A stretch of DNA of 64,000 bases from Nitrospirales bacterium (GTDB taxonomy: Bacteria > Nitrospirota > Nitrospiria > Nitrospirales > UBA8639), in NCBI GenBank assembly GCA_041737015.1, contig JBGSSO010000381.1, positions 1,304 to 65,303 of the forward strand, read 5' to 3'. Shown one piece after another: positions 2,137-21,770 of this stretch (positions are counted from its first letter, which is position 1; every line of letters starts with the position of its first letter). The notes beneath the pieces are model-generated. The model saw only the letters and a list, made by a program, of their open reading frames with translations. It was not told the DNA's origin and made no database searches. The position numbers and the translations under genes are program-made.

Positions 2137-2261
2137 CTTGATTTTTAAACTGAGGTAAGTAAAGTAGGGGAGGTTTAATTGTTGGAGTTGAATGCCTCAG
2201 TTCCCCTGATGAGGTCGTCATTATGAATTCGAGTTCGGGAATAGAAAAGGAGTTGTGAAAT

Positions 2262-3434: not shown

Positions 3435-3833
3435 AACAAGCTGTAGTCGACTTTTTCAGCTCGTTCATAATACCTGCTGGAATCGCAATATACTGTCTCG
3501 CCAATTTGCCCAAAGACACCTAGGGTGAACCTTCCTGTTTCCTTTATCCGGCTACATTCATTCTCTGGCCAATAGGACAAATCCTGGCTATATTAAATTG
3601 TATCGCTGTTAAGGCCTGGTTACTGCTCACCTTACATTAGATAGATTTGGTGGGCTGGCATAGAACGTCCATACTTTGATCAAACCCAAATCTGCCAGAA
3701 GCCGGCTTAAAAAAAAGATTTCAAGGAAATACGTGAGAGCATAAGCAGAGATGGGAAAAGCTTTCATATCGATTTTTTTTCTTCATGAATCTCCTGGTAT
3801 TGGAAATCTACTCCTTACGCGTCGAGGTTTTGT

Positions 3834-4586: not shown

Positions 4587-4749
4587 ACCAATAAACAAAT
4601 ACCTTTTGTTCCCCTAAAAATCCAATCACCAGCAGACCAACAGATATCCCTCTGTCCACCCATGAATAACTGAAGCCACCGGCTCCACCTCAAATCTTTC
4701 GAGACTTTTCAGATGGTGATTCTATGTTTTTGTTTAATAAATGGGTGGC

Positions 4750-5487
4750 CTAACTACCACGTCGTGAAGGAGGGATTAGTTGACGGCGGGGGGCAGGTCG
4801 CGAAGGGAAGCGTTGAGGATCGGAGGTCACAATAATGTCACCGATAGAAAACTTTCCATTGACCCCATCATCATTCGTCATATCCCCAAAGCCGATTCTG
4901 GGTATCCCCACCCAGTCATTTCGTTTCAAAGCTGGCTTTCCATCAACGTACACCTTGGCAAATCTTCCACCCTCAACCTTTAAAGTGTAGGTGTGAAAGG
5001 TATCAGTCGTATCAATTTTAAACGTCCCTTTCTCGTCTCCCCATCCAATGGCATCCTCATCAAAAAAGATCATATGACTTCGTGGTCCTTCTGCAAAACT
5101 ACCGTCAGAGGTGTCGATAGAACCGTGAAACATAATGCCCGAATCAAGAAAATTATGCGGTTGCTCTACTTTGTGCACTTGTAAAGTAAACTCAATGGAG
5201 AACCCTGTCTCGAAGTCAAAAGGAACCTCTTTATAAAACCACATGAACGCTTTCCCTGGAAGTTGGTCGATGGCTCTTAAGACTCCAATCGTGTTGAGCG
5301 TTAAATGACTCCCATTGGTCACCACGTCCAATGGGCGAACAGCGTTGGTGGAAACCTCCCAACCTTGCTCTCCTGGCAACTGGGAACCTTTCAATGCAGT
5401 AGTTTGTCCGGACTGCACTCCTCCACATCCGGCAAGGAGGAACAACGTGACGAGCGTAAATTGCATAGTGACTTTCCCAATCCGCAT
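4750..5487 (-). CDS. Lipoprotein with a predicted ConA/LamG-like beta-sandwich
   Basis: Likely start ATG 5487 or 5466; lipobox LAGC; beta-rich with FHTYTLKV..AKVYVDG; the ORF-track extension to 5832 is unlikely to be coding. Confidence 0.65.
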   Translation of the reverse strand: MRIGKVTMQFTLVTLFLLAGCGGVQSGQTTALKGSQLPGEQGWEVSTNAVRPLDVVTNGSHLTLNTIGVLRAIDQLPGKAFMWFYKEVPFDFETGFSIEFTLQVHKVEQPHNFLDSGIMFHGSIDTSDGSFAEGPRSHMIFFDEDAIGWGDEKGTFKIDTTDTFHTYTLKVEGGRFAKVYVDGKPALKRNDWVGIPRIGFGDMTNDDGVNGKFSIGDIIVTSDPQRFPSRPAPRRQLIPPSRRGS

Positions 5488-6150
5488 GACAGACCCCTTT
5501 GCAAGAAGGCTCACGAAGAAGGCAAACCTACCCGAGATAGCCTTATGGTTCTTCCTGGATTTTAAATCACGACAGCGATGTATATGCCCTGATAGGCGTC
5601 CACTTACCACATTTCCCATAGATGGCCCCAATTCCCTAACTATTATAGATTGAAGGTACACATATACAAAAATCTCCCCATTCACTCTTGGCTTATGAAA
5701 AAGGATTCTACTATAGATCGCGCAGATTAAAAATGAACAATTTCCTCTGGAGACGGACATAGAAATATCCGAGGCTCCTCCCAATCCATCACCCGTTTTC
5801 TGACCCGAAGTCGGCCCATTGCCAATCAGCAAAAAACAATGCCCTCTCGATTCTCCCTGAAATAAAGGAATCAGGATTAGGAAAGGGTATTGATTGAATC
5901 GTCGTTGGAAAAGGAATGTTGGAACGGTATTCTAGAATGGACAGGAGCAGTTTGGATTCTCGGCGGAATACATGGCAGGACGATTGAATAATTAAAAGAT
6001 GTTACACCAACAGGCAAAACATGCAACCACTGTCTGGTTAACTGATCATACGGAATTGCTTCGCGTCATACGCAAGGGCACCCTCGATGGCGCGCGCAAG
6101 TACCGGGACAAAGACACCCCGTGGTCGGATAGGATGAAACATCGGCTTTC

Positions 6151-8652
6151 CTACTGATTCGGAAGTTCGGCTTGGTTCTGGATGACAAAATAGTCCAATT
6201 CCAATGCGCCGGTATCCGATAGCACCTCCAATTTGATCGTATGGGAACCGGCGGAGAGCGCCTGTGATAATCGCATCTCTTGCGTCACCTCATAATCCCC
6301 CAAGACGCCCCGATCGTCCAACTCGATCGTCGACTGGCGCCGGCCATCAACAGAGATCGTAACCTTATCATCAGCACTTTTGCCCTTTGTATATCTCAGA
6401 CGAATACTCGGGTTCGGAATGTTCTCGGTCAGGTGTAACACATAATTCGCTTCTCCCGTCCCTCGTATCGTGTGTCCCGCGGACGCCGTCTTGCGGGGCG
6501 ATTTCAGCAGGGTACCCGAGCGGTAGTCCTCAGCCTGCTGGGTCACAAGGTAGCCTATTGGTCCCAGCACTTCGATTTTGAAATCCGGGCACGAGGTATT
6601 GTGCCGCGAATAGGTAGGCCGGTCAAAACTCCAGGAATCGCCTGGGATCGTTGTCCATTCCTCATGGTTCGGATCGATCGGGTACGTCTGCACGACACCG
6701 GACGAGGATGCGGCCTGAATACGGGAGATATCGCTATTATCATTGGCCACCCACATGGAACGCATGGTAACAAACGGCGCGGTGAGGGTGTCATACGTCA
6801 CATCCGTCACGCGCACCGTCGTCTTGCCCGGTTCGGCCTGGAGCTGCAATACCGCGGACGATCCGTTTTTATATCGCACCTTGATGGTCATCGTGTGCGG
6901 ATCGATATCCAGCCTCTCGATCGGAATGAACGGAAACAAGGGGTCCTCTGCCGCCGGCCCAATAATCATCGAGGATCCGAAACAGACCCGCTCCTCCCGT
7001 CCCACCGGGGGTTGCGTAATAATCCGCGCGTATCCATTGGCATAGAGCACAAATATTTGCGGGGGGGCATGATCGTCGTCCGTCCGTTTGAGAAGCTGGA
7101 TAAAATCGTGGTCCGGCTCCGATGGTCCACCCACGATATTGACGGCCATCCCCGATTCATAGGGCCACCCGGACACATCCATGACGCGAACCGCCACATC
7201 ACCGTCGTTGTAGATGTCCTTACCGTCGAGATCCGCGATGTCCACAAAACCCGAGGTCACCAAACTCGCATACTGACCGGCGGCACCGGATGCGAGGACC
7301 TGAGGGGTATCCCACTGCGGTGCGGTCATTTTCGTCTTCGCCAGAAATTTTAAGCTCTGATTGTCTGCATCGTAATAGGCAATATTCGGATACCCTCTTG
7401 CCGTCACTCCCAGCGAGGCAAACCGTCCAACATCCCCCACCGCATCAAGAACGATCCCCACCGGCCATTGTGCTACGGCGGCGTCTTTGTAAAGGTATTT
7501 TAAATCCTTATTCGTGGCATCATAATACGCCACATGCAGAGCCCCATCCGGACCAAACGCCGTCGACGTATATTGACCGACATCTCCTGCCGCATCCAAC
7601 ACCAGCGGGATCGACCACCCCTGTTCATCCTGATAGATGTATTTTAAATTTCCGTTGCTCGCATCGTAATACGTGATATGCGGATAATGCCCTTCATACG
7701 CCCCGTTCATTTTCTCTGTCCAACCCTCATAGTACAGGCTCATTGAGGCGTAGGTCCCGACATCCCCGACGGCATCCAGGACCACGGGCGCCGACCATCC
7801 ATGCGTGTCGTCATTCATGACATATTTCAAATCCTTCGTGTCCGCATCGTAATACACCACATGCAGGCTGCCCGTGGGACCTATCGCCATGGCCGCCTGC
7901 TGCCCGACATCGCCGTTTGCGTCCAGGATCGTTGGGGTTGCCCATCCGCCCACTGCATCCGGATTGCTCTTGTAGGTATATTTTAAATTCCCGTGATCCG
8001 CATCGTAATAGACCACGTGATGCCGCCTATCCCGACTAATGCGCAGCGAGACGTATTTTCCGACATCGCCGGTAGCATCGACAATCTCCGGCTCGCGCCA
8101 CTTCCCATTTTCATCCCGGATAATATACATGAGGTTTTGTTTGACCGCGTCATAATAAGCCATAGCCGGTGGCGCGCCTAAGCCCACCCAATACCGGTCA
8201 GTCGGCGGATACGCCAGCGACACATATTGTCCGACATCCGCATTGACCGCATCCGGCGTTTCAATCGGATACCAATAGAAGCCAGGCGACTGCCAGACAA
8301 ATTTCAACTTCTGTTGCGCCGCATCGTAATAGGCAATCTGCGCCGTTGGCCGCATATCCCACGCCCGTTCGCAGTTGGTGAGATCTCCAATACAGAGATC
8401 CTTCTGCCCGCGTTGGAGTGGATAATAGGTCGGAAAGGTCGCAGTAATTTGATAGTCGGACACATAACCGCCATAGATCGGAATATTCACATTGTCCTCT
8501 TCCGCACACTGTGACGGAAAGCTCATATTCTTGGCGTAGCGCACCGTGGTTGCTCCCGCAGCATTAACGCTTTGCAGGCCCACCACCACACACAGCATCC
8601 CGATGATCGCCAGATTCTTTGTCTTACACATACGCCAAGCCATAACCATCAA
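6151..8652 (-). CDS. Secreted protein with 7 beta-propeller repeats and a C-terminal CBM6/35-like module
   Basis: Signal peptide; seven ~48-aa repeats (HxxYYDAxxxxLKY...W...LDAxGDVGxYxS); C-terminal QAEDY...HTIKLE...LELDYF. Confidence 0.8.
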   Translation of the reverse strand: MMVMAWRMCKTKNLAIIGMLCVVVGLQSVNAAGATTVRYAKNMSFPSQCAEEDNVNIPIYGGYVSDYQITATFPTYYPLQRGQKDLCIGDLTNCERAWDMRPTAQIAYYDAAQQKLKFVWQSPGFYWYPIETPDAVNADVGQYVSLAYPPTDRYWVGLGAPPAMAYYDAVKQNLMYIIRDENGKWREPEIVDATGDVGKYVSLRISRDRRHHVVYYDADHGNLKYTYKSNPDAVGGWATPTILDANGDVGQQAAMAIGPTGSLHVVYYDADTKDLKYVMNDDTHGWSAPVVLDAVGDVGTYASMSLYYEGWTEKMNGAYEGHYPHITYYDASNGNLKYIYQDEQGWSIPLVLDAAGDVGQYTSTAFGPDGALHVAYYDATNKDLKYLYKDAAVAQWPVGIVLDAVGDVGRFASLGVTARGYPNIAYYDADNQSLKFLAKTKMTAPQWDTPQVLASGAAGQYASLVTSGFVDIADLDGKDIYNDGDVAVRVMDVSGWPYESGMAVNIVGGPSEPDHDFIQLLKRTDDDHAPPQIFVLYANGYARIITQPPVGREERVCFGSSMIIGPAAEDPLFPFIPIERLDIDPHTMTIKVRYKNGSSAVLQLQAEPGKTTVRVTDVTYDTLTAPFVTMRSMWVANDNSDISRIQAASSSGVVQTYPIDPNHEEWTTIPGDSWSFDRPTYSRHNTSCPDFKIEVLGPIGYLVTQQAEDYRSGTLLKSPRKTASAGHTIRGTGEANYVLHLTENIPNPSIRLRYTKGKSADDKVTISVDGRRQSTIELDDRGVLGDYEVTQEMRLSQALSAGSHTIKLEVLSDTGALELDYFVIQNQAELPNQ

Positions 8653-8676
8653 GCGATCTCCTCACGTCTCAGTAGT

Positions 8677-8694
8677 AATGTGAATGTTCACGTT
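8677..8694. promoter_or_regulatory. Palindromic operator-like site
   Basis: AATGTGAATGTTCACGTT, 14/18 self-complementary, about 25 bp upstream of the 833-aa gene. Confidence 0.35.
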
Positions 8695-8903
8695 GACCGG
8701 GTTTTGAGAGCCGGGTGTGATCCATACCCACATGCCCGCCTTCCGCCCTTGTCGTGTTTCATCTCAAATCATCAATCACGCCCAAAGGTCGCCTGAGTAA
8801 CACGCGGCACCTCGATGAGGTGTTCGTCCCCATGCAAGGACCACGGCAGTATCTCTGGCATACGGTTGATCCGGGCAGGCCGCCACGTTGAGAATCCGAC
8901 AAT

Positions 8904-11900
8904 TTACCATTTGGCCATCAACGTGAACTTGTTGCCTGAGAACCAGATACCGTGATCATCCACACGGTAGCTGTCATCGCCCTCAACGGCCACCTGCTTA
9001 GGCTTACCCTCCATGTGGATTGGCCAGCGCACATAAATTTTTCTATCCGTGTCTTTTGGCATATCCACATCCAGATTCAGTCTCTGATCGGTGTCATCCC
9101 ACTTCGCCTGCATCATCAGGTTTCCGAAATGCGTGGGAAAATTCGAAAGCGCAATTCCATCGCCCACAAGCCATTCGCGTGGGGTACCAAACAGCAGATT
9201 CAAGGTTTTGCTTTTATCCTCTTCCATCACGATAAGGCCACGGACAGAATTCACATAACCTGCCCCGACCCACGTATGTGGCATATCACCAATATACACA
9301 CCCTTGCGGCTGTCGGACAGAACCACCTCGGCAAACTCATTCCAATTGGCCGGACGCCTGCCCTTGAACAGAATTTCATGCAGGTCGAAGGCTTCCTTGC
9401 GATACCCTAGGGTTGCAAGAGCCAGAATATTCCGCACCTCGTAAGGCGTATAGGAATAGGGCGTAGAACCGGCATCCCGTTCTTTCACCATCCGGTAATA
9501 GTTCCGGAACGTCCGGTCCAGGATATCTGCAGGCAGAACGTGCCAGGCTTCCGTGGGAAACATGGCAATGGCAATGGAGGTCGGATCAGGAGTACCTTTG
9601 TCCGCATCCACAGGGATATAGTCGAGAGACTTCCAGGCGATAGTCTTTTCAATGGACTCCCTGACGCTTGTGGTGAAATTTTTCGACTCAGTCCTCGCCC
9701 AGTCAGCTAAAAACTTTCGACCCAGGATTTCCGCCATTTCAATCCCGTCCGCCCAACCGCGAATGGCCCAGAAATCATCCCAATAACTGTGCATCGGGGT
9801 AATGAACCCTTCATGACTGATGGACGGAGGTAAGATGCCCTTCAGGCGCTCACCGGCCTCAAGATGTTCATAATATTTCGGATCAAGTGTACGCTCCCGC
9901 AACGTGACAATGTACTTCATCGCCCGGTGCACAGCATCAAAATGCTTTTCCAGGAAATCTCTGTCACCGGTAAAACGATAGTACTCCATGATCGCATAGA
10001 TAAACTGACCCTGGCTGTCCCATTCAATATTCCTCCCCCAGCCGTCATACACCTCACCACTGGTGAAGAGAATGGGAGGCACGAGGCCATCGGGTTCCAC
10101 GCGTTCGGCATACCAATTCAGAAATGCCCTGACCTCCTCGAAAAAACCAAGCCGCATGAGCGTGGCGGAAATGATCGCGCCATCCCGCATCCAGGTCCGG
10201 TTGTAGCTGCGCGCGCCTGGCTGGATGACCACGCCATCGTTGTTCAACAGGATATAGGCTATCTGCGATTTCACGGTATTGACGACGGCCTTGTTGGCAA
10301 GCTCGAATCCCACACGGTTAAGCTTGTCGGTCCAGAAGGTTACATACTCCCGCCGCAACGTCTCGAAGTCCTCGGCAGTTTTCAGATTGGTCAGGGTCTC
10401 ATGCAGGGGAGCCGCAAACACCACCTCCTTGGATTCACCAGGTTTCAATTCAAAGGCATAGGTCCAGGCTGCCGAGAGAAGACCGGTCCCGGTCTGGTCC
10501 TCAATAGATTTGGCATCGCCCTTGCGGTCTGCACCGGCGCCCAGCACGACCCTGCCTCGCAGGTGGTTGGCAATATCACCATGAGCATATGGCGAGGCCA
10601 GGAAACTGTCGGCAGGCGAAAGGGCCAGGTAGGTGTTCTTGTCGTTGATCATCACCAGTTTCCCGGTTTCCCCCACGTACCTGATCGATTTGATAGGCGA
10701 CAATCCGCCATGTTGCCACTTGGGATTGATCTGAGCGGGCCTGACCGTGACGATGAGTTCCCCCTTCCGTACAGTATCGGAGCGATTTTCAAGCGTATGT
10801 CGCACATAGGTCATGCTGGCATCGACAGGCCCGCTGGTAATGGCCTCGGACCTGAAATAAAGTCCATTCCCGGTCTCCCATTTCACGATAGGAACCGGCA
10901 GATACCCGTCCTGCAATTCCTGTCGTATGTTCGCCGCGACGGCAGCCGAATACAGATTGTCACCCTCTTTGACATAAGGCATCAGCATGGGGCCGTCGCG
11001 CCGGGATTCCAGATTGCCATACTCATCGAATAGACTTTCCTCGCTATCCATGGGAAGACCCACCAGAGTCCAGTAGGTCTGATAGCCCCTGACATGTGGG
11101 GGATAATCGCCGAACGGCGCTCTCCGGGCATCAAACTGATAACGAACAAAAGGGGAGAACACTTCCTTGGGACCACGCAACGAAATATCGCTAATCCCAA
11201 AACCGCCCCCGGCTTTCATAGGGTTAGTCAGCACAAGCCTGATGTAGCGGACCTCTGATGGATCATGCGGAACAAAATCGGATTGCCCCTGTGATCCCGC
11301 CGAGACGGAGATGGAGGAGACCTCCTTCCATTCCTTTCCATCCATCGAAATGGCCATATCGACCGAACCGGCATATTGATCTCCCCAGTCGATACGCAAT
11401 CCGGAAATCGTTCTGGACTTGCGCAGGTCCAGAAGCAATTCTGCCCGGTCAACCGCCTCGCTTTTCCAGACGGTATCCTTGCGGCCATCCATCAGAGCCG
11501 GGGTATTCGCACCACCACCCGCGACCACGGAGATATCGACAATGTCGTCAGTCCCTTTGATATCAAATTCCCAGAGGGAATTCCCCCAGCTTGTCGCTCT
11601 CTCCCGTGTATCCAGCCGGACATATCTCGCGGAAACGGGTTGGATGTAAATATCATCCATCTGCCCGTCACCGTCGTCGTTCACATACACCGTCGTCCAC
11701 ACCTTGGCATCGGTCGAAACCAGGAGGTTGTATTTGTTCGAATACCCGTTCTCCCAATGCAGGGTAAAGCCGGTGATCTCAACGACCGTTCCAAGATCGA
11801 CGAGAGCCCATTCCTCATCCTTTGCCTGACTGGACCAGCGGGTCGTCATGTCACTATCCGCCAGGTAACCCGGCAAAAATTCATCGCTCTGAATCGAGGA

Positions 11901-12023
11901 AGCGGTCACCCGCCATGTGTCCTTTGCCGGTATATTGGATGCTGCCAACGCGGCTCTCACGGGCAACATCAGCAGGATCAGGATAGAAAACAATGTCAAC
12001 AAACTGCTCTTGTAAAAGGTCAT
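8904..12023 (-). CDS. Secreted discoidin (F5/8 type C) x2 plus six-hairpin (alpha/alpha)6 glycosidase-like protein, paralogue A
   Basis: Start ATG 12023 overlaps the upstream stop (TGATG); signal peptide; two discoidin modules (DSDMTTRWSS, DGRKDTVWKS); catalytic-domain motifs YNRTWMRDG, GILPPSISHEG, SYWDDFW, YTPYE, IGDMPHTWVG. Confidence 0.85.
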   Translation of the reverse strand: MTFYKSSLLTLFSILILLMLPVRAALAASNIPAKDTWRVTASSIQSDEFLPGYLADSDMTTRWSSQAKDEEWALVDLGTVVEITGFTLHWENGYSNKYNLLVSTDAKVWTTVYVNDDGDGQMDDIYIQPVSARYVRLDTRERATSWGNSLWEFDIKGTDDIVDISVVAGGGANTPALMDGRKDTVWKSEAVDRAELLLDLRKSRTISGLRIDWGDQYAGSVDMAISMDGKEWKEVSSISVSAGSQGQSDFVPHDPSEVRYIRLVLTNPMKAGGGFGISDISLRGPKEVFSPFVRYQFDARRAPFGDYPPHVRGYQTYWTLVGLPMDSEESLFDEYGNLESRRDGPMLMPYVKEGDNLYSAAVAANIRQELQDGYLPVPIVKWETGNGLYFRSEAITSGPVDASMTYVRHTLENRSDTVRKGELIVTVRPAQINPKWQHGGLSPIKSIRYVGETGKLVMINDKNTYLALSPADSFLASPYAHGDIANHLRGRVVLGAGADRKGDAKSIEDQTGTGLLSAAWTYAFELKPGESKEVVFAAPLHETLTNLKTAEDFETLRREYVTFWTDKLNRVGFELANKAVVNTVKSQIAYILLNNDGVVIQPGARSYNRTWMRDGAIISATLMRLGFFEEVRAFLNWYAERVEPDGLVPPILFTSGEVYDGWGRNIEWDSQGQFIYAIMEYYRFTGDRDFLEKHFDAVHRAMKYIVTLRERTLDPKYYEHLEAGERLKGILPPSISHEGFITPMHSYWDDFWAIRGWADGIEMAEILGRKFLADWARTESKNFTTSVRESIEKTIAWKSLDYIPVDADKGTPDPTSIAIAMFPTEAWHVLPADILDRTFRNYYRMVKERDAGSTPYSYTPYEVRNILALATLGYRKEAFDLHEILFKGRRPANWNEFAEVVLSDSRKGVYIGDMPHTWVGAGYVNSVRGLIVMEEDKSKTLNLLFGTPREWLVGDGIALSNFPTHFGNLMMQAKWDDTDQRLNLDVDMPKDTDRKIYVRWPIHMEGKPKQVAVEGDDSYRVDDHGIWFSGNKFTLMAKW

Positions 12024-13147
12024 CAGTGATCTCCCTGACTTGTCGTGAGGTTTCCGGAAGGTTTGTGTCGAAGCTCCTTTCCGTCTTTCCCGAAAAGATG
12101 GCAGTGGTCTGCCGCAATACACACCGTCAGCTTGTCTCCCTTCGCGAAACCGAAATCGCCGGATGCACGACATATCAGCAGGTCATCGGCATCCGGCGTT
12201 TCCAGATAGACATAGGAATGGCTACCCAGTGGTTCCACCAGCTTGATCTCTGTCTCGACGAAGTTGTGCTTACCCCCCGTCGCCAGATGCTCCGGACGAA
12301 TGCCAAGCGTGACCGGAGTATCCGGGGGCAGCTCTCCGGCAACGCCATTCACCTGGATCGTCGTTCCGCTTTGAAGTCGTACCGTTGTGGTATCCCGGCG
12401 GCTCTCGACCACGAACCCGGCCAGGAAATTCATGGCCGGCGAACCGATAAAGCCGGCAACAAAGCGGTTGGTAGGATACTTGTACAGTTCATTGGGGGAA
12501 CCAGTCTGTTCAATGCATCCATCTCTGAGAACCACGATCCGATCCGCCAGTGTCATGGCCTCGACCTGGTCATGCGTGACATAGATCATCGTGGTCTCAA
12601 GCGTCTCGTGCAGTCGTGCAATCTCATGACGCATCTTCACACGAAGAGAGGCATCCAGATTGGAAAGCGGTTCATCAAAGAGGAAGATTCGCGGACGCCT
12701 GACGATCGCCCGGCCAATAGCCGTGCGCTGGCGCTGCCCACCGGAAAGCTCTTTCGGTTTCCGCTCAAGCAGCGCGGTCAGGCCGAGTGTTTCGGCAGCC
12801 GCGCGCACCGCCTGGTCAATTTCTGCCGCAGAAGCTCCGGCAATTTTCATCCCGAAGCTCATGTTGTCATAGACGGTCATATGCGGATACAGCGCATAGG
12901 ACTGGAACACCATCGCAATCCCGCGCTCGGAAGGCGAAAGCCTCGAGACATCGGTCTCACCGATTTTGATGGTTCCCTTATCGATCTCTTCGAGGCCCGC
13001 AATCGTACGCAACAGGGTTGACTTGCCGCAACCCGAAGGGCCGACAATCACCGCAAACTCCCCATCGGGCACATCAAGATCAACCGCAGACAACACGGCC
13101 GTCTTGCCAAAACTCTTGTGAATATTTCGCAGGGTCAGACTAGCCAT
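12023..13147 (-). CDS. Sugar ABC transporter ATP-binding subunit (MalK/UgpC family)
   Basis: Start MASLTLRNIHKSFG at 13147; Walker A GPSGCGKST; signature LSGGQRQR; DEPLSNLD; C-terminal TOBE region. Confidence 0.95.
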   Translation of the reverse strand: MASLTLRNIHKSFGKTAVLSAVDLDVPDGEFAVIVGPSGCGKSTLLRTIAGLEEIDKGTIKIGETDVSRLSPSERGIAMVFQSYALYPHMTVYDNMSFGMKIAGASAAEIDQAVRAAAETLGLTALLERKPKELSGGQRQRTAIGRAIVRRPRIFLFDEPLSNLDASLRVKMRHEIARLHETLETTMIYVTHDQVEAMTLADRIVVLRDGCIEQTGSPNELYKYPTNRFVAGFIGSPAMNFLAGFVVESRRDTTTVRLQSGTTIQVNGVAGELPPDTPVTLGIRPEHLATGGKHNFVETEIKLVEPLGSHSYVYLETPDADDLLICRASGDFGFAKGDKLTVCIAADHCHLFGKDGKELRHKPSGNLTTSQGDH

Positions 13148-14528
13148 GACGCGTATGCACGGAAAGAGGCAGGAAGGGTTCGTCCAGAACCGCACCATTG
13201 GATTCGATAATTTTCGAATAATAACGGGCCGTATCCTTCGGCGTGCGCTCAAGAGTCTCAAAATCGACATGAACAATGCCGAATCGCTTGGCATAACCAA
13301 AGGACCATTCATAGTTGTCCATCAGGGACCAGGCCATATATCCCCGCACATCAACGCCTTTCTCAATCGCGGTCCGGACCGCGCAAAGATGCTGGTTCAG
13401 GTACTGCATCCGCACCGGATCAATGACCCGGCCATGAATCGCTTTCGGCGGATCAAAGAAGGCCGAGCCATTCTCGGTGATATAGAGCGGCATCTCACCA
13501 TAACGACTCTTGAGCCAGAGCAGCGTATCGGAAAGCCCGTCCGGATAGACCTCCCACCCTGTTTCCGTGTAGGTCTTGTGGGGCTGGCGAACGGTCTTGG
13601 CCCTGACAGGCAGACAGTCCGGGCCATCACATGTCACAGCACGCGTGTAATAATTCAGCCCGACAAAATCGATCTTCTGACAAATAAGATCGAAGTCCTT
13701 GGCAGGCCATTCAGGCCAGGCGTCACCGAATATCTCCTTCATTTCCTCCGGATAGGATCCCAGGAGAGCGGGATCAAGAAACTGCCGGTTCATATATGCA
13801 TCGGCGCGATTGGTAGCCGCCAGATCTTTCGGATCATCTGACGCCGGATATTTCGGCTCGATATTCACCACCAGGCCGATTGCATGGGCCCCGACAGCGC
13901 GATAGGCCTGAACGGCCGCACCATGGGCGCGCATCAGATGATGCGCGGCAACCGGCGCTTCATAGTGACAGGAATGTCCAGGGGCCAGTGCCCCATGCAA
14001 ATAGCCGCCATCCGTGACCACCCAGGGTTCATTGAGTGTCGTCCATTTTGTAACCCGGCCATCCAACCGCCGGTACATCGCGTCCCCATAGTCGGCAAAC
14101 CAATGCGCAATGTCCGGATTCAGCCATCCGCCAAGATCGTCCAGCGCTGCCGGTAAATCCCAGTGATACAATGTCAGGAGCGGTTCAATCCCGGCTTCCA
14201 AAAGTCCATCAACAAGTCGTTCGTAGAAATCCAAGCCTTTCTCATTCAGGCTTCCTTTGCCTTCAGGAAAAATACGCGCCCAGGCCACCGAAAACCGATA
14301 GGCTTGCAATCCCAGCTCCTTCATGAGGGCGATATCCTCGCGCCAGCGATGATAATGATCACAGGCGATGTCGCCGGTATCGCCATTCAGGATATTTCCC
14401 GGCGTGTGGGCAAAACGCTGCCAGATGCTCGGGCCTGCACCATCGGCCAGCGGTGCCCCCTCAATCTGGTAGGCCGATGTGGCAGCACCCCAGAGAAACC
14501 CCTCGGGAAACGTCGCGTTTTTTTTCAT
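13140..14528 (-). CDS. GH1 beta-glucosidase (cytoplasmic)
   Basis: FPEGFLWGAATSAYQIEG; acid/base TLNEP; nucleophile ITENG; no signal peptide. Confidence 0.95.
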   Translation of the reverse strand: MKKNATFPEGFLWGAATSAYQIEGAPLADGAGPSIWQRFAHTPGNILNGDTGDIACDHYHRWREDIALMKELGLQAYRFSVAWARIFPEGKGSLNEKGLDFYERLVDGLLEAGIEPLLTLYHWDLPAALDDLGGWLNPDIAHWFADYGDAMYRRLDGRVTKWTTLNEPWVVTDGGYLHGALAPGHSCHYEAPVAAHHLMRAHGAAVQAYRAVGAHAIGLVVNIEPKYPASDDPKDLAATNRADAYMNRQFLDPALLGSYPEEMKEIFGDAWPEWPAKDFDLICQKIDFVGLNYYTRAVTCDGPDCLPVRAKTVRQPHKTYTETGWEVYPDGLSDTLLWLKSRYGEMPLYITENGSAFFDPPKAIHGRVIDPVRMQYLNQHLCAVRTAIEKGVDVRGYMAWSLMDNYEWSFGYAKRFGIVHVDFETLERTPKDTARYYSKIIESNGAVLDEPFLPLSVHTRHG

Positions 14529-14585
14529 CTACCCTTATCCTTTTTGATTAATGGTCTACAACAATCATGTTCGCAGCAGGTGGTT

Positions 14586-17500
14586 TTATGGGGATGCCTC
14601 AAGGACCTCCATAGGGATTCCATTGAATGTCAGCCTGACATCGCCTTTCAGCGAGGGCGGCAGGACATAGCCGCCCGGTGGCATGGTCGATCCTTCCAGA
14701 TCAACACGCACCTGCCCGCCCTCATCACGTGCCGCATAGGACACTTCGCCGTGCGGGGTTCTCAGTCCATGCACCCGGACACCTTCACCCTGTAACCAAT
14801 TTCGCGGCAGACCCGCGCCGATGACCAGTGAGCCGGTTTCTGTATCGGCATAAACAAACAGATCAAGCACCGCCCGGATGAAATCCGATCCCACCCATGT
14901 ATGGGGCATATCACCAATGAAACGCGGTTCCCGTACAAGCCGGCCGATCACCTCGGCCCATTGATTCCACGCTGCCGGGCGGCGATCCCGCATATAAAAA
15001 TCAAGCAGGGCATGGGCACGTTCCAGCTCTCCCAAGCGCACAAACGCGCTCACCTGACGGAATTCATAGGGGGTATAAACATTCCACGCCTTGGTGCCAT
15101 CGCGCCGCGCCACAAACTCGGACCAGGCTTTTTCAAACGTGGCAATCAGCAGCTCCCTCGGCAAGGATGCTGCTGCCCCGGTAGGTGAAAGCGCGATCGT
15201 CGTGGATGTCGGGTCAAAATCTTTTCGGTCCGCGGCCCCCGGCACGTGCCCGAGTTCTTCGCCCAACAATCTGACAGACGCGCTAATATCTGCGGCAAAT
15301 TCGGCGGCATCTGCCCTGATGTCGGCTGCGCGATCTCGGTGCCCAAGTTCCTCAGCAAGAAACGCCGCATCATTCAATCCTTTCAGACCCCAGAAATTAT
15401 CCCAGAAGGAATAGGCAGGACGGTCCAAATAGCCTTCATGGCTCACCGATGGCGGTAACAGACCATAGAAGGCCTTGCGATCACCTTGACGGTTATGCTC
15501 CGTTCGTTCCAACAGCCTCAAATCATCCAGCGCGGCCGCGGCCTTGTCCACATAGGGCCACATGACCTCGGCAAAAGCACGATCCCCGGTGTACCGGTAA
15601 ATATCCACAATCAGAAAAATCAGTTCTCCATGGCTATCATTTTCCACAACCGGATCCGCGCCACGCTTGTCCACACAACAGGGAACTTTGCCACTGGAGA
15701 ACTGGTGCGGTGCGTACCAGCGCGCATACTCAACAGCAGGTTCGTTCTGCCCGAGACGCAGGAAACTTTCACCCATCATCGCTCCGTCACGTATCCACGA
15801 ACGGGCATAGGTTCGTGGCCCCGGACGCAGTGCCGGCCCGTCGCGCGTGATCATCATATGAGCCAACGCGGTTTTCAGACTATTGAGCATCGGCATGGAT
15901 TCAGGCGGGCCCGAAATTTCCACCTGATTGAGGATGTGCCGCCATTCATCGGCTGCCGCCTTTTCACCGGCATCGATGGCCTCGCGGTCCAGGTCGGGCG
16001 TCCGTCCGTCATCAGAACCGAGCACCGTGACGACAGAAACTTCGCGAACCTCACCCGGCTTCAAATCAACATGAAAATACATGGCGCCGGAACCGAAGCC
16101 TCCCGGAGCTACGAGGCTTTGCGAATCCATGCTTGCCCCGGCATCCTGCACATGCGGGAAACCGGCCCGTTCAAATCCCGCGAGCGACACATGGTCCGGC
16201 TTCAGGTCAGGCCACACAGACCAGTTACCATTCACCTGAAACGCTTTGCCATCCCAACCGATCTGCTCAATTTTGCTGGCACCACCCACAAGGTTCAAAA
16301 TCTGCGTGGGCGGATTGACCTGCATGGGGCGGATGGCAAGAGCCAGGGTGAGCGTTCGATGGATCGTGCCGGTATTGACCACACGATATCTGGTCACCAC
16401 ATCACGGGCATTGCCGTCCATCCCGCCTTCTCTTCCAGCGGGAACAGGCGGACGATGTGCACTGATCTCCAATGATAGCCCCTCATGGGTCCGACGCACG
16501 CGCGGCATGGGCAGATAATCATCCCTCAGGCTGTGGTTAAGCCCGGCATCGGCCCAGCCCTGTATGGACCCATTCGCAATCACAAACGGTTCAATCGAGA
16601 ACGCCCCGGGGCCGGGTTCTATGGCGCCATCTTCCGACAGCATGGCCGACCGGCCACCCTGGGGAGCGCCAACAACGGTCCAATAAATTTGTTCACCAAC
16701 GAAGCTGCGCGGATAAGATCCTTTTTTGGTTGCCTGTGCGAGGGACAGCAGAAACTCATTATCACTCTGCCCGAATTCCGGTGGTTCGACCGTCGCGTCT
16801 ATCAAACCAACCTGGCCTCCAGAGGCCGGTTTCACTGAAAGACGAACATAACGCCCGAACGCGTCTGCCATTCGCACATAACCGGTAGTTCCTGGGGGGG
16901 AAGGCCCAATATACAGTTGCCAGTCCGGCACCGTCCACCCTTTTCCATCCTCGGAAAGGGCCATATCAATCGCCTCCGGCATCTGACCTTCGGCCCATCG
17001 TAAGGTCAGACCGCCAAGATCGCGCAAATAGCCCAGATCAAATATCAGGCCCGTGGGTGTGTCGTCAGTCCAGATTGTCTTCGGATTGCCGTCAACGGCG
17101 GCAGGGGCAGGGATATCACCGGCTGTTGCCACGATAGGAGGAACAAAGGCAGGCTGTTCAGGCAAGGTCCGCAGTTCAAGGGTATCGAACTCGACCGTAC
17201 CCTGGTCACCGGTTTCGCCAAGAATCACAAACTCTATTTTGGCGATGGTTTTCAAATTATGGTCCTTTATCGGACCCCATGCAAAGTGTATATCGCTGCG
17301 CCGGATACGGATGGTTGTCCAGTCATCAGGAAACTCGTAATCACGAAACTGCTTCCACCAGACATTCGCGCCACTGTCATCAACCAGCCTCACCTCAAAG
17401 GTCGACTGTGGGGCATGACCCCTGAGCGTGAATGCGATCTCGAAATTGTTTGATAGATCAAGCGGGAGTGCCCGATGTGCATTGGCGGTACCGGCGGTTC

Positions 17501-17741
17501 GGAGTTCATACGACAGTTGAAGCGCATGGCCTCTCACGCCTCCTGTCGTCCTGACAGAGGCCTCACTGTATTCCGTGGCGATTGTCCGCCATTCCCCGAC
17601 ATTCTCAAACCCGTCAATTAACCGAAAATTATTGGCGGCGGTATTCTCACCATACGCGCACACGGCCACTGACAACCAGGCCATCCCGGCAAACAGGCAG
17701 CAGGATGTCCACCATGAATGTCTCATGTATGAACATCTCAT
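14586..17741 (-). CDS. Secreted CIA30/CBM-like plus discoidin plus six-hairpin glycosidase-like protein, paralogue B
   Basis: ATGA overlap with the permease stop; signal peptide; AAVDGNPKTIW discoidin; motifs YARSWIRDG, GLLPPSVSHEG, SFWDNFW, YTPYE, IGDMPHTWVG shared with paralogue A. Confidence 0.85.
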   Translation of the reverse strand: MRCSYMRHSWWTSCCLFAGMAWLSVAVCAYGENTAANNFRLIDGFENVGEWRTIATEYSEASVRTTGGVRGHALQLSYELRTAGTANAHRALPLDLSNNFEIAFTLRGHAPQSTFEVRLVDDSGANVWWKQFRDYEFPDDWTTIRIRRSDIHFAWGPIKDHNLKTIAKIEFVILGETGDQGTVEFDTLELRTLPEQPAFVPPIVATAGDIPAPAAVDGNPKTIWTDDTPTGLIFDLGYLRDLGGLTLRWAEGQMPEAIDMALSEDGKGWTVPDWQLYIGPSPPGTTGYVRMADAFGRYVRLSVKPASGGQVGLIDATVEPPEFGQSDNEFLLSLAQATKKGSYPRSFVGEQIYWTVVGAPQGGRSAMLSEDGAIEPGPGAFSIEPFVIANGSIQGWADAGLNHSLRDDYLPMPRVRRTHEGLSLEISAHRPPVPAGREGGMDGNARDVVTRYRVVNTGTIHRTLTLALAIRPMQVNPPTQILNLVGGASKIEQIGWDGKAFQVNGNWSVWPDLKPDHVSLAGFERAGFPHVQDAGASMDSQSLVAPGGFGSGAMYFHVDLKPGEVREVSVVTVLGSDDGRTPDLDREAIDAGEKAAADEWRHILNQVEISGPPESMPMLNSLKTALAHMMITRDGPALRPGPRTYARSWIRDGAMMGESFLRLGQNEPAVEYARWYAPHQFSSGKVPCCVDKRGADPVVENDSHGELIFLIVDIYRYTGDRAFAEVMWPYVDKAAAALDDLRLLERTEHNRQGDRKAFYGLLPPSVSHEGYLDRPAYSFWDNFWGLKGLNDAAFLAEELGHRDRAADIRADAAEFAADISASVRLLGEELGHVPGAADRKDFDPTSTTIALSPTGAAASLPRELLIATFEKAWSEFVARRDGTKAWNVYTPYEFRQVSAFVRLGELERAHALLDFYMRDRRPAAWNQWAEVIGRLVREPRFIGDMPHTWVGSDFIRAVLDLFVYADTETGSLVIGAGLPRNWLQGEGVRVHGLRTPHGEVSYAARDEGGQVRVDLEGSTMPPGGYVLPPSLKGDVRLTFNGIPMEVLEASP

Positions 17742-18574
17742 CCTTTGACACTTCCCGCAAGGTTTCCGCTCATATAAAAACGCTGAAGCGCCAGAAAAAG
17801 AACCAGGACCGGTGTCACGGTGATCACCGCCCCGGCCATCATCAGCTCAACATCCTGCACATGCTCCCGTGACAAAGATGCCAGCGCAATTGGCAGGGTA
17901 TATTTGTCACTGTCGGTCAGGACGATCAGCGGCCACAAAAAATCATTCCATGCAGCCATAAAGGTAAACAGCCCCAGGGTAATCAGAATGGGTGTCAGTA
18001 ACGGCACCACGACCGACCGGAAAATGCGTAGTTCACTGGCCCCTTCAATCCGTGCCGACTCGATCAGTTCCGTCGGAATGGACAAGGCATACTGCCGTAC
18101 GAGAAATATACCAAATATGCTGGCCACAAAAGGGATCAGCACACCGATCCAGCTATTCACCAGCCCCATCCCTTTCAACATCAGGAACAGCGGAATCATG
18201 GACACCTGGGCCGGAATGACCAGAGCGCTTAGAAGCCCGCGGAACAGCAATTGCCTCCCCTTAAATTCCAATTTGGCAAACGCATAACCGGCAGCCACAT
18301 TAAACGTGAGGGACAACAATGTAGCCGCCGATGCGACAAACAGGGAATTCAAGAAGTTTCTTCCCATGCTGGAATATTCAAAGAGCTTGATATAATTGGC
18401 GAGCGTCGGATGCTCCGGCAACAGCGGCGGCGGAAAATTGCTGGCCTCTCCCGGAGCCATAAAGGACACACTCAGCATCCACAGCAACGGGAACAAAGCA
18501 AACACGGAAAGGAACGACAGCCCAATATTCGTCCCGGATCCTCTCCACATATTTCTCATCGGCTTACCGATCAT
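17738..18574 (-). CDS. Carbohydrate ABC transporter permease (MalG/UgpE type)
   Basis: Six TM segments; EAA-type motif ELIESARIEGAS; WNDFLWPL. Confidence 0.95.
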   Translation of the reverse strand: MIGKPMRNMWRGSGTNIGLSFLSVFALFPLLWMLSVSFMAPGEASNFPPPLLPEHPTLANYIKLFEYSSMGRNFLNSLFVASAATLLSLTFNVAAGYAFAKLEFKGRQLLFRGLLSALVIPAQVSMIPLFLMLKGMGLVNSWIGVLIPFVASIFGIFLVRQYALSIPTELIESARIEGASELRIFRSVVVPLLTPILITLGLFTFMAAWNDFLWPLIVLTDSDKYTLPIALASLSREHVQDVELMMAGAVITVTPVLVLFLALQRFYMSGNLAGSVKG

Positions 18575-18611
18575 ACAGAATGTATAGCTCCCCCCTCTTC
18601 ATGTGCATTCC

Positions 18612-19079
18612 GTCTCCCATAGTCCGACGCCTGCCGTCTGCCCCAAGAAAGGACGTTCTCATCACAACACATTCTTACTATAGTTATTCCAATTAATTTC
18701 AAAAGTCCTCTTTATCTGTGTGCTATCCTCGCCGCTGCATGACGCCTGCCGGCTGGCCAAAGGGAGGACGCTCTCATTCCCCGGCGGACCTTGTTTGAGT
18801 CCTACGACAAAGCTCAGGACAGGCTCCGCGAGTTGGTCCGCTTTCCCCAAGTTTGCGTCCGTCCCCTCTGATGAGGCCAGACGGGGCGTCCATGGTTTTG
18901 GGTCCTTTTGCCGAAACAAAAGGACCTCGCCAGCCGGGGCGAAACCCGGCAACATAGAAAAACCCCTCGATACGAAAGTTAATTGCACAAGTTCGAAGTG
19001 CGAATTAGCCATCGTTTTTCCTCGCCAACTCCAAGATGGACTCCCGATTATCATTAAACCTGTAAGCCCAGAACCAAAC
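18612..19079 (+). repeat. ~460-bp structured dispersed repeat, copy 1 (MITE/REP-like)
   Basis: Aligns along its length with 21318-21770; internal inverted motif CAATTAATTTC (18690) / GAAAGTTAATTG (18974); hairpins at 18901-18926 and 18933-18950. Confidence 0.9.
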
Positions 19080-19961
19080 TCACACTCCACTCCCATACCG
19101 GCGCATCACCACAAGCTGGCCGATTGCCGCCACAATCATAAATACAAAGAGAATAAAGGCCACGGCGGATGCCGATCCCAGGCTCCACCATTTAAAGCCT
19201 TCTTCATACATCAGATAAATAATGCTGAGCGTACTCTGGACGGGTCCTCCCTGTGTCATCACATAGGGTTCGGCAAAAAGCTGGAAGTATCCGGCCATGG
19301 TTAGCACCCCGACGAGAAACAGTGAGGGAATCAGAGAAGGCAGAGTGACATTGAAAAAACGCTGTCGGGCATTGGCCCCGTCAATCCGCGCAGCCTCATA
19401 CAAATCGCCGGGTATCGCCTGGAGGCCCGCCAGAAGAATGATCATATTGTAGCCAAAATTTTTCCAGACCGCGAAAAGGATGATGGACGGCATGGAAAAA
19501 TGCGGATCACCCAGCCAGTCCACAACGGGGAGACCCAACCAGTCGAGGGAATAATTGATCAAGCCATAACGGGTATGCAGGAGATATCGCCAGATCACCG
19601 CCACGGCCACAATCGTCGTCACGACGGGCGCAAACAGTGCCGTCCTGAAAAATCCTTTGAACCGAACCATCTGCCCATTCAGCAACAGAGCCCCCGCCAG
19701 TGACACGAACACCGAAAGGGGCGCACCGACGAGCACGAAATACAGCGTATTACCCAGGGCCTGCCAGAACAGCGGCCGTTGCAACAGCTCAATATAGTTT
19801 TGGAAACCCACAAACCGGAGGTTGCTAAGGTCGGCCAGAGCATAGATATCAAAGTCCGTCAGACTGAGGGCCAAGGCAGCCAGCACCGGCAGAAAGAAAA
19901 AGACGGCAATGATCGCCAGCGCCGGCCCGGCAAACAGCCAACCTGCCACAGAGGATCTCAC
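19080..19961 (-). CDS. Carbohydrate ABC transporter permease (MalF/UgpA type)
   Basis: FVGFQNY; EAA motif LYEAARIDGAN; multiple TM segments. Confidence 0.95.
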   Translation of the reverse strand: MRSSVAGWLFAGPALAIIAVFFFLPVLAALALSLTDFDIYALADLSNLRFVGFQNYIELLQRPLFWQALGNTLYFVLVGAPLSVFVSLAGALLLNGQMVRFKGFFRTALFAPVVTTIVAVAVIWRYLLHTRYGLINYSLDWLGLPVVDWLGDPHFSMPSIILFAVWKNFGYNMIILLAGLQAIPGDLYEAARIDGANARQRFFNVTLPSLIPSLFLVGVLTMAGYFQLFAEPYVMTQGGPVQSTLSIIYLMYEEGFKWWSLGSASAVAFILFVFMIVAAIGQLVVMRRYGSGV

Positions 19962-21268
19962 GACTCTGCTCCCTCTTCCCGCGCCAGCATCCAGCGACGC
20001 TTTTCAAGAATGCGATCGATCCGGCCATCCAATTCACGCGCCGCCTCGGCAGCCGTCCATTTCTCATGCACCGCACGCTCCGTCACCATGCGCAATTCCT
20101 GCACGATACGTTCCCACTCAGGGATTTTCGGTGCCGGAAGCGCGCGCTCAAGCTGCTCCCTGAAGGCCACAAGATACGGATCTGATTCAAGCCGGTCTCC
20201 GCGCCAGCTTGACCGCCGAGGCGGCAGATTGCCACTGATCTCGTAAAACTGTTGCTGGATGGTTGGACGGGACAGGAATTCAACAAGCCGGAATGCCGCA
20301 TCTTTATGCGCTGAATGTTTAAACACCACCAGGCTGGAACCGCCTGCTGTCGAGGCACCCGGACCCGAAGGCCCCGGCAGGATGGCCGTCATCCAATCAT
20401 CCTGCAGATCGGTAGGCAACCGGCGACGGAATTCACCAATATTCCACGGCCCGGTCAAATAGAAGGTAAAGTGGCCGCGTGCAAATTCATCCCACACATT
20501 GGCAATGTCGGTTTCACTGGAAGGCGGTGCCAGTCCCTTGCGGAAAAAGTCGAGATAAAAATCAAGGGCGGCTACCAGCTCAGGGCTGGAAAAATTGCCA
20601 TACCGGTCACCGTCCCGCAGCAAGGGTACCCCTTGTTGAAGAGCAAGAGACACCTGCATCTCATATTCATTCAGTGGCACGTAAAAGGCAAAGTTGTCTT
20701 TTCCAACATGGTGCTTCACGGCCGTAGCGGCCTGAATCCATTCAGCCCAGTCACGTGGAGGGCGAACAATCCCGGCAGCCCTGAGAATATCCTGCCGGTA
20801 AAAGAGGAGCCGCGTATCCACATACCAGGGCACCCCGTACAGTGTCTCGCCAACCCTGTTCGTCGCCCAAATACCCGGGAAATAATCCTCTTCCTTAATC
20901 ACGGAAGAAGCACCTGCCATCTCGTCCAGCCCGGCAACGGCATCAAGCGCCGCAAACTCCGCTATCCAGGTATTGCCCATCTGGGCCACATCAGGCAGGG
21001 CGTCTCCGGCAAAGGCCGTCAGCAGTTTTTCATGGGCCGAGGTCCAGGGAATCTGCTGGACTACGACACGAACCCCAGGATTCTCGCGTTCAAATTCTTT
21101 GAGCACCTCAGGAACAATCTCCCCTTCACGGCCCATAGCCCAGAACTTAATTTCCAGAATATCATCCTGCCCGCTCCCACTTGTGCATGCGGCAAACATG
21201 GCCGCCAGCAGAATGAAGGCAACTACAAACATCCCCGCTGTTTTTTTTGACGATATTTTTTTGGTCAT
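19958..21268 (-). CDS. Sugar ABC transporter substrate-binding lipoprotein
   Basis: Likely start ATG 21268 or 21298; lipobox FAAC; family-1 SBP motifs (LPDVAQMG, YGVPWYVDTRLLFYR); the ORF-track 5' extension runs into the repeat. Confidence 0.92.
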   Translation of the reverse strand: MTKKISSKKTAGMFVVAFILLAAMFAACTSGSGQDDILEIKFWAMGREGEIVPEVLKEFERENPGVRVVVQQIPWTSAHEKLLTAFAGDALPDVAQMGNTWIAEFAALDAVAGLDEMAGASSVIKEEDYFPGIWATNRVGETLYGVPWYVDTRLLFYRQDILRAAGIVRPPRDWAEWIQAATAVKHHVGKDNFAFYVPLNEYEMQVSLALQQGVPLLRDGDRYGNFSSPELVAALDFYLDFFRKGLAPPSSETDIANVWDEFARGHFTFYLTGPWNIGEFRRRLPTDLQDDWMTAILPGPSGPGASTAGGSSLVVFKHSAHKDAAFRLVEFLSRPTIQQQFYEISGNLPPRRSSWRGDRLESDPYLVAFREQLERALPAPKIPEWERIVQELRMVTERAVHEKWTAAEAARELDGRIDRILEKRRWMLAREEGAES

Positions 21269-21317
21269 ACAGAAATATAGGGGTCCCGGTTCATTCATGT
21301 GTGTCTCTGAAAGATTT

Positions 21318-21770
21318 GTCTCCCCTGCTCCGACGCCTGCCGGCTGGCCCAAGGGAGGGACGCTCTCATCACAACTCGTTTTCCCTAAAGTGATTCCAAT
21401 TAATTTCCAAAGCCATCTTTATCCGTGTGTCCCCCTCGCCGCTGCGGTGACGCCTGCCGGCTGGCCCAAGGGAGGGACGCTCTCATCCGCAGGCGGACCT
21501 TGTTTGAGCCCGGCGAGTTGGGCCGCCCTCCGCAAGTTTGCGTCCGTCCCCTCTTATGAGGCCAGACGGGGCGTCAATGGTTTTGGCCACTTTTGCCGAA
21601 ACAAAAGTGGCTCGACCGCCGGGGCGAAACCCGGCAACACAGAAAATCACGTTGCTACGAAAGTTAATTGCACAAGTGCGATGTGCGAATCAGCCACCGT
21701 TTTTTTTCTAGCCAAATCCAAGATGGACTCCCGATACACATCCTCAAGCTGTAAGGCCAGAAACATACAT
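21318..21770 (+). repeat. ~450-bp structured dispersed repeat, copy 2
   Basis: Direct-orientation homologue of 18612-19079; inverted motif at 21397 and 21659; hairpins at 21586-21611 and 21618-21635. Confidence 0.9.

Follow-up and report, generated by a model that had tools for sequence, protein, structure and literature searches.

The stretch analysed here, referred to throughout as the window, comprises 64,000 nucleotides of a Nitrospirales bacterium (assembly GCA_041737015.1, contig JBGSSO010000381.1, positions 1,304 to 65,303 of the forward strand). On its minus strand, at 6151..8652, lies gene P0001 (833 codons plus stop), whose product carries a seven-bladed beta-propeller nested in a loop of another domain, the host domain, and ends in a module resembling carbohydrate-binding modules (CBMs) of families 35 and 6. 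By our analysis, the protein belongs to an uncharacterised domain family with links to beta-1,2-glucan metabolism, of which it represents a new insertion variant. Its parts are as follows, all on the minus strand:

8560..8652, minus strand: predicted Sec-type signal peptide, residues 1-31 (…GLQSVNA/AG), with a hydrophobic core and an AxA-type site
8356..8547, minus strand: N half of the split host domain, residues ~36-99 (profile A3 and the N-flank hidden Markov model, HMM)
7252..8355, minus strand: inserted seven-bladed YYD beta-propeller, residues 100-467 (repeats, AlphaFold2 and Foldseek)
6556..7251, minus strand: C half of the split host domain, residues 468-699 (profile A3 and HMMER; all-beta in the AlphaFold2 model)
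6154..6555, minus strand: CBM35/CBM6-like beta-sandwich, residues 700-833 (Pfam match below the cut-off, profile matches and AlphaFold2)

Gene and protein layout

The reading frame opens with TTG at 8652. Because an ATG follows directly, at 8649, and the orthologues open with MVxxW, codon 2 is probably the true start. The signal peptide is predicted from a reading of the sequence, and its position is conserved in alignment A1. A scan for promoters and terminators around the gene gave nothing better than shuffled sequence.

The motifs of the N half read YAKNMS…C49AEEDNVN…ATFPTY…C87…C94 and those of the C half IYNDGD…GW…VLYANGYAR…VC557FGSS…PFVTMRSM…SRHNTSCPD. A preliminary description of this DNA had named two segments flanking a propeller, and both were located, CAEEDNVNIP…ATFPTY…DLTNC at residues 49-94 and FIQL…IFVLYANGYAR…FGSSMIIGP at about 517-566. 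Orthologues fall into about 47 full-length clusters with 57-91% identity, and every one that carries an organism name belongs to Nitrospirales/Nitrospirota. A distant protein, P0049 (1356 aa, 38% identity), has the identical order of parts, while the propeller alone is common to hundreds of proteins of other architectures.

AlphaFold2, given an alignment of 31 full-length relatives, returned a model with a mean predicted local distance difference test (pLDDT) score of 70.7. The ~100 N-terminal residues lie below 50, except for a strand at 66-72, and residues 476-700 are beta-rich with mixed confidence.

The flanks of the propeller are one evolutionary unit

The C-flank profile (alignment A2), searched exhaustively with HMMER over 1.84 billion representatives, matched 431 representative proteins at E<=1e-3, 353 of them at E<=1e-10. 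When the best 146 non-self C-flank matches were scanned with the N-flank HMM (residues 36-101), 130 gave a match, always upstream of that of the C flank. The two matches are 3-54 residues apart in 98 of these 130, giving a contiguous domain with a median length of 288 aa; the other gaps are 146-221 residues (27 proteins), 332-396 residues (four) and 939 residues (one). Of the 16 proteins with no N-flank match, most are fragments truncated at the N terminus. In a set of 72 propeller-only relatives, a single protein has the N flank, and that protein has the C flank too.

Profile A3, built from 27 short contiguous homologues only (315 positions), was searched against the genome from which the window comes. 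It matched this open reading frame alone, in a single frame but in two parts: model positions 16-106 at window 8326-8598 (E 1.5e-15) and model positions 105-311 at window 6565-7224 (E 4.8e-59). These parts abut in the model (105/106) yet lie ~367 residues apart in the protein. A word-index search with the joined flanks, a method blind to distant relatives, yielded nothing beyond pieces of the same orthologue (>=79% identical), none of which spanned more than one flank. We conclude that the two flanks are a single evolutionary unit, which is contiguous elsewhere.

The preliminary description had taken the flanks for the two halves of a domain that other bacteria have in one contiguous piece, with the propeller as a loop insertion. 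The 130 of 146 paired matches, the 98 contiguous members, the abutting A3 pieces and the correlated loss of C87 and C557 described below all bear this out. Contiguous single-domain homologues, whose absence that description had named as a refutation, do exist: once residues 99-468 are removed, what remains of the sequence aligns from one end to the other with the contiguous model of 288 positions.

The family signature of the N half is N-x-S…C-A-E-E-D-N-[VI]-N…A-T-H-P-x-Y…D-x-C-x-x-D-F-x-N-C, and it is present at residues 42-94 with ATFP replacing ATHP. The C-half signature, DDG…WW…VLY-x-DGN-x-RL-x-P-x-PP…VCFGSS…RP…PFATFRSM…N-A-D…S-x-HNTSAPD, is present with the departures WW→WP, Asp→Asn539 and Arg→Phe573. 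The halves, contiguous in the family, are separated here by ~368 residues, which makes the protein an insertion variant.

Covariation of cysteines across the insertion

Four cysteines are conserved in the family, three in the N half and the fourth in VCFGSS of the C half, and all four are present here:

8506-8508, minus strand: codon of C49
8392-8394, minus strand: codon of C87
8371-8373, minus strand: codon of C94
6982-6984, minus strand: codon of C557

Among 196 members covering both halves, the patterns are CCCC in 178, CxCx in 13, xCxC in 2 and mixed in 3. The association of Cys2 with Cys4 has a Fisher p of 2e-17 when phylogeny is ignored. Both P0049 and P0157 lack Cys1 together with Cys3. 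Because the cysteines vanish in these pairs, we infer disulfides Cys1-Cys3 (C49-C94) and Cys2-Cys4 (C87-C557), the latter of which would tie the two halves together over the inserted propeller.

A recurrent insertion site

When breakpoints were placed on the contiguous model, 37 of the 38 insertion-bearing proteins were interrupted at positions ~59 to ~74, within a variable loop of ~14 residues between …DFSNC and …LYDDG; the sole exception, P0147, is interrupted a few residues earlier. This loop is a recurrent insertion site. The YYD propeller is the guest in the present protein and in P0043, P0144, P0049 and P0157, and it probably also lies within the 939-aa insert of P0226. Another guest is a ~170-aa sandwich with the motif LW-x-IG-x-x-DGS-x-EF, single or in tandem (P0151, P0169). 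Two mid-sized members match PF14683 (polysaccharide lyase family 4 domain III / CBM-like), matches that we assign by inference to this ~170-aa insert. Further guests are an unrelated ~150-aa domain and tandem small repeats (P0279).

In a FastTree phylogeny built on the host domain after its inserts had been cut out, the members with a propeller group in one clade (support 0.989), in which a contiguous member, the subtilase fusion P0229, is nested, and inserts of 150-230 aa occur in at least 4 separate clades. On this distribution, the propeller probably entered once and the loop was reused repeatedly. The propeller would leave and re-enter the host at neighbouring points, as closed propellers allow.

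The propeller

The YYD motifs start at residues 108, 166, 215, 267, 328, 376 and 426, in repeats of the form H-x-x-YYD-x(5)-LKY/LKF…Trp…D-x-x-GDVG-x-[YF]-x-S. All seven repeats reported earlier between the flanks were thus located, with the motif form given for them. The blades are, on the minus strand:

8182-8355, minus strand: blade 1, residues 100-157
8035-8181, minus strand: blade 2, residues 158-206
7879-8034, minus strand: blade 3, residues 207-258
7696-7878, minus strand: blade 4, residues 259-319
7552-7695, minus strand: blade 5, residues 320-367
7402-7551, minus strand: blade 6, residues 368-417
7252-7401, minus strand: blade 7, residues 418-467

In the AlphaFold2 model, residues 104-466 form regular four-stranded blades, mostly with pLDDT of 80-95. 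A Foldseek search of the PDB with the propeller retrieved the seven-bladed PLL/PHL lectins and CV39L at E values from 2e-14 to about 1e-11. The PLL/PHL fits have E values of 2e-14 to 1e-12, a TM score (target) of 0.76-0.82, a root-mean-square deviation of about 3.1-3.8 Å for the best-fitting entries and 15-17% identity. Sequence homology to PLL/PHL was not detected, phmmer against all PDB sequences giving no match at E<=1. PF15892 (BNR_4), though annotated on many propeller-only proteins, has no match in this protein at E<=1; in the relative P0050, a BNR_4 match lies at residues 560-608, outside the common propeller region.

The C-terminal module

The module at residues 700-833 matches Pfam CBM_35_2 at E 5.8e-4 and 20.3 bits, under the 23-bit cut-off; in P0049, CBM_6 likewise falls under its cut-off (24.9 versus 28.9 bits). 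Two orthologues carry a precomputed PF03422 (CBM_6) assignment. Profile A5 (residues 696-833) matches the PDB chains 5X7O (E 4e-9) and 3WNL (E 1.5e-4), the latter a cycloisomaltooligosaccharide glucanotransferase (CITase), in regions that we take to be CBM35 domains, and residues 700-828 are modelled by AlphaFold2 as a beta-sandwich with pLDDT mostly of 65-86. The earlier identification of a CBM6/35-like module at this place therefore agrees with the sub-cut-off CBM_35_2 match, the PF03422 assignments in orthologues and the matches to 5X7O and 3WNL.

Operon and beta-1,2-glucan context

The gene is the last of a co-oriented run on the minus strand, whose upstream genes, annotated by Pfam matches, occupy 8907..21352:

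19961-21352, minus strand: binding protein (Lin1841 match)
19083-19961, minus strand: permease (Pfam)
17741-18574, minus strand: permease (Pfam)
14589-17741, minus strand: exported 1051-aa protein (Pfam)
13143-14528, minus strand: glycoside hydrolase family 1 (GH1) protein (Pfam)
12026-13312, minus strand: MalK-type ATPase (Pfam)
8907-12173, minus strand: exported 1089-aa F5/8-C protein (Pfam)

The binding protein matches Lin1841 (5YSB) at E 3e-66; Lin1841 is the sophoro-oligosaccharide (Sopn)-binding protein of Listeria innocua (PMC13731917). Gene order is conserved around the orthologue P0010 (81% identical), where the gene likewise follows the F5/8-C glycosidase. The neighbours of another orthologue, P0043 (68% identical), comprise a SOGP (GH94 1,2-beta-oligoglucan phosphorylase), two MdoG/OpgG genes, a PF10091 gene, an OpgH-type glycosyltransferase of family 2 (GT2), a GH3 gene and an F5/8-C glycosidase. 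Between its GH144/OpgG/SOGP genes and its propeller gene, the P0043 locus also has, at L016:4665-9679, genes for a sulfatase, for a sulfotransferase and for an arylsulfotransferase-like protein, a hint that this lineage may have glucans or oligosaccharides in sulfated form.

Fusions and neighbours of more distant members point in the same direction. In P0049 (L004:10001-14071, Logan ERR3281021), the N half, propeller, C half and CBM module are fused to a multi-pass membrane glycosyltransferase that has no Pfam match and that matches the glycosyltransferase region of the cyclic beta-1,2-glucan synthase (8rf9/8rf0) at E 1.1e-6. P0049 is a candidate beta-glucan synthase of a new type, one whose lectin-like head would lie outside the cytoplasm. 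The PF10091 gene that follows P0049 matches the GH144 endo-beta-1,2-glucanase 5GZH (E 8e-46). PF10091 is itself fused to the host domain in P0226 (E 6e-59) and, weakly, in P0213, and a PF10091 gene lies two genes upstream of P0144. Downstream of the domain-only protein P0262 stand a GT2_3 gene and then a PF10091 gene. Between the glycosyltransferase beside P0262 and that of P0049, BLAST gave no significant similarity (E 3-7); the two have motif-level likeness only (SHDF-x-EA, RW-x-x-G), in motifs that we take to be those known from OpgH.

Taken on gene content and fusions, the link to beta-1,2-glucan is strong for the propeller clade and suggestive for the host-domain family.

Two further genes border the operon. 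Directly downstream, at 4753-5478 on the minus strand, is a predicted 242-aa lipoprotein (…LLAGCGG…) with no Pfam match, which is not kept beside P0010 and which lies in a stretch of lower GC content (0.44). Just past the other end, at 22439-23749 on the minus strand, lies a pentapeptide-repeat protein with a C-terminal TIR domain (TIR_2, E 9e-18).

Nature of the host domain

The host domain had no match in Pfam, NCBIfam, PDB sequences or PDB profiles. Homology to OpgG/MdoG (PF04349) was considered and rejected, the comparison of the host-domain profile with the OpgG profile by hhalign giving a probability of 0.5% and E 0.11. Named sources of family members include Planctomycetaceae, Deltaproteobacteria, Marinimicrobia, Verrucomicrobiae, Lentisphaeria and metagenome-assembled genomes of Acidobacteriota. 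Nearly all members are labelled hypothetical, and one is named for its BACON domain. The domain also occurs deep within giant secreted proteins: P0183 (4155 aa), P0161 (3296), P0188 (2788), P0144 (2820) and P0226 (4211). P0144 is the closest non-orthologue (C flank E 1.8e-85), with no Pfam match across its 2820 residues.

Polar residues are strongly conserved in the motifs CAEEDN, LY-x-DGN-x-R, CFGSS, FRSM and S-x-HNTSAPD, a pattern more in keeping with an active or ligand site than with a scaffold. We lean towards an enzymatic function for the host family as a whole. A near-invariant Asp (Asn539 here) and a near-invariant Arg (Phe573 here) are replaced in all members of the propeller clade; because of these replacements, the clade may have shifted towards binding or to a changed specificity.

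Genome and phyletic distribution

The genome that holds the window (G000) also encodes, outside the window, a ~2920-aa open frame homologous to Cgs/NdvB (8rf0, E 2e-226; contig C193:6951-7571, locus L011) and two MdoG/OpgG genes (C363:636-2063 and C149:4-1356; E 1.6e-190 and 1.6e-168). Across seven species of the genus, the host-domain (propeller) gene, OpgG and Cgs are found together in the same two, and these two alone have OpgG. The host domain is rare: it was found in 3 of 401 genomes sampled from the phylum of the window and in 1 of 401 from that of P0262. Frames of ~2900 aa with a PF10091 match (Cgs-type) are present in 87 of the 401 genomes of the window's phylum.

The GC content of the sugar operon (6001-22000) is 0.52-0.57, compared with 0.44 in the bracketing regions 2001-6000 and 22001-24000. 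This contrast, together with the presence of the gene in only two of the seven species, suggests that the operon is an accessory, possibly acquired, block.

Alternative interpretations

The flanks could instead be two small separate domains that always occur together, with the propeller in the linker between them. The insertion region is indeed variable in length and poorly conserved (model positions ~59-72), and structure prediction would be compatible with this view: the N half is mostly below a pLDDT of 50 in the full-length AlphaFold2 model, and the C half modelled alone reaches moderate confidence (pLDDT 66.7, predicted template modelling score, pTM, 0.68). Against it, Cys2 of the N half and the cysteine of VCFGSS are jointly lost in 13 members and jointly kept in 180, with 3 mixed; none of the samples examined had the N segment without the C segment; and this segment of just ~60 residues bears the most conserved motif of the family. 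We regard two separate domains as very improbable. Since the cysteine pairs co-vary across the halves and the N flank never occurs without the C flank among propeller-only relatives, the flanks most probably constitute one fold. As to function, the protein might be a general surface adhesin or a binder of another polysaccharide, placed at the end of the operon incidentally and having nothing specific to do with beta-1,2-glucan. The 251-nt gap to the upstream gene, the many contiguous members in unrelated neighbourhoods and the adhesin-suggesting partners FG-GAP, cadherin-like and Big_9 would fit such a role. Several further results count against the reading that we prefer (given below): the resemblance of the propeller to lectins is at the level of fold only (15-17% identity); Foldseek with the C-half-only model, which is of moderate quality and cannot support a claim of fold novelty, found nothing better than E 0.012 or a TM score of 0.31; no glucan genes lie beside P0193, P0171, P0176, P0346, P0367 or P0157, the last of which bears the propeller; and the phyletic association is weak, all 3 host-domain genomes falling among the 87 of 401 with PF10091/Cgs (a chance of about 0.01 by our own estimate) and two of them being congeneric. 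Nevertheless, the place after the F5/8-C glycosidase is kept in P0010, the locus of P0043 is dense in beta-1,2-glucan genes, and the fusions to a Cgs-like glycosyltransferase and to PF10091/GH144-type domains are independent. A role outside glucan metabolism thus appears unlikely.

Within a beta-1,2-glucan system, the host domain might be a new enzyme acting on the glucan or its substituents, active in this very protein, with the propeller and the CBM35 merely targeting it. Glycosidase, transglycosylase and de-acylating enzyme are candidate activity types. In favour of this are the polar positions conserved across phyla (E/D/N of CAEEDN, D/R of LY-x-DGN-x-R, S of CFGSS, RSM and R…S-x-HN-x-x-x-PD), the many members that are stand-alone secreted proteins of ~300 aa, fusion partners typical of carbohydrate-active enzymes (CAZymes), namely dockerin, CBM6, PA14, BACON, PKD and parallel beta-helix, and the nesting of binding modules in loops, a known habit of CAZymes. 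The replacements in the propeller clade tell against activity here, since every member has changed the near-invariant Asp (to N/S) and Arg (to F/Y/W); moreover, P0049 and P0157 lack the His of HNTS, no likeness to catalytic families was seen in Pfam, NCBIfam or the PDB, and the operon already contains three glycosidases. An enzyme active in this protein is therefore possible but, in our judgement, doubtful. The broader proposal, equally tentative, is that with the split domain begins a carbohydrate-active family that would be new and specific to beta-1,2-glucans, whether as an enzyme or as the first dedicated binding module, and that its loop would serve as an evolutionary docking port for at least 4 independently accepted kinds of module. 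The four kinds counted are the seven-bladed propeller, single or double PL4-domain-III-like sandwiches, the unrelated ~150-aa domain and tandem small repeats.

Proposed role and comparison with known systems

The reading that we prefer, and consider reasonably likely, is that of an exported protein of a beta-1,2-glucan system, in which a beta-rich, disulfide-stapled host domain of ~290 residues carries the propeller in the loop after its N-terminal Cys motif (…D-x-C-x-x-D-F-x-N-C), with the CBM35-like module next to it. Its likeliest role would be the capture or processing of beta-1,2-glucan, and the "multivalent glycan-binding or new catalytic architecture" put forward in the preliminary description is plausible. 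Seven repeated propeller sites and the CBM35-like module would bind cyclic or linear beta-1,2-glucan multivalently and hold it in reach of the host domain and of the operon's two exported glycosidases. Sophoro-oligosaccharides released in this way would enter through the Lin1841-like ATP-binding cassette importer and be split by the cytoplasmic GH1. Because the genome also has Cgs and OpgG, the substrate may be the cell's own periplasmic glucan, in turnover, as well as foreign glucan.

Beta-1,2-glucans are factors in symbiosis, virulence and osmoregulation, and their enzymology has opened up only in the last decade (PMC12102758, PMC13731917). The analysis defines a rare domain, spanning phyla, that recurs in fusion with, or next to, GH144-type glucanases and Cgs/OpgH-type synthases; this recurrence makes it a tangible candidate for an activity or a binding function missing from the beta-1,2-glucan pathway. 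It also offers a clean natural example of one loop into which whole domains, 130 to 900 residues long, can be inserted, of use for understanding or borrowing permissive sites. In addition, some genomes of this nitrite-oxidiser lineage combine synthesis genes (Cgs, OpgG) with an uptake and degradation operon for beta-1,2-glucan.

Among known proteins, PgSGL4 of the 'SGL clan' has a signal peptide, a beta-propeller and a pair of putative carbohydrate-binding domains, and its function was left unassigned after biochemical testing (PMC12102758). Like the present protein, it is an exported multidomain protein associated with beta-1,2-glucan that combines a propeller with putative carbohydrate-binding domains (PMC12102758). 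However, its propeller is six-bladed, N-terminal and in series with an (alpha/alpha)6 barrel, none of its parts is nested in another, and it lacks a homologue of the split domain. OpgG/MdoG, the beta-rich protein that partners the glucosyltransferase OpgH in the periplasm, resembles the host-domain proteins in being exported and beta-rich and in having its gene adjoin that of a membrane glycosyltransferase of OpgH/Cgs type, as in the contexts of P0262 and P0049, although it has no detectable homology to the host domain.

The best structural matches to residues ~100-467 are PLL/PHL of Photorhabdus and CV39L of Chromobacterium (5C9L, 5MXE, 6T96, 8Q82, 6GXS). As in the modelled propeller of the present protein, these have seven four-stranded blades with highly regular repeats, an arrangement that would suit multivalent sugar binding. 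These lectins are free-standing proteins of ~350 aa, whereas the propeller described here is nested within another domain. For such nesting, a close parallel is the CITase 3WNK/3WNL, which is likewise a modular secreted glycan protein with a binding module interrupting another domain; residues 433-509 of 3WNL are those to which our C-terminal module aligns (E 1.5e-4), and the CBM35 of CITase is, as we understand it, an internal insertion. In the present protein, the host domain is uncharacterised and the guest is a 368-residue propeller rather than a ~130-residue sandwich.

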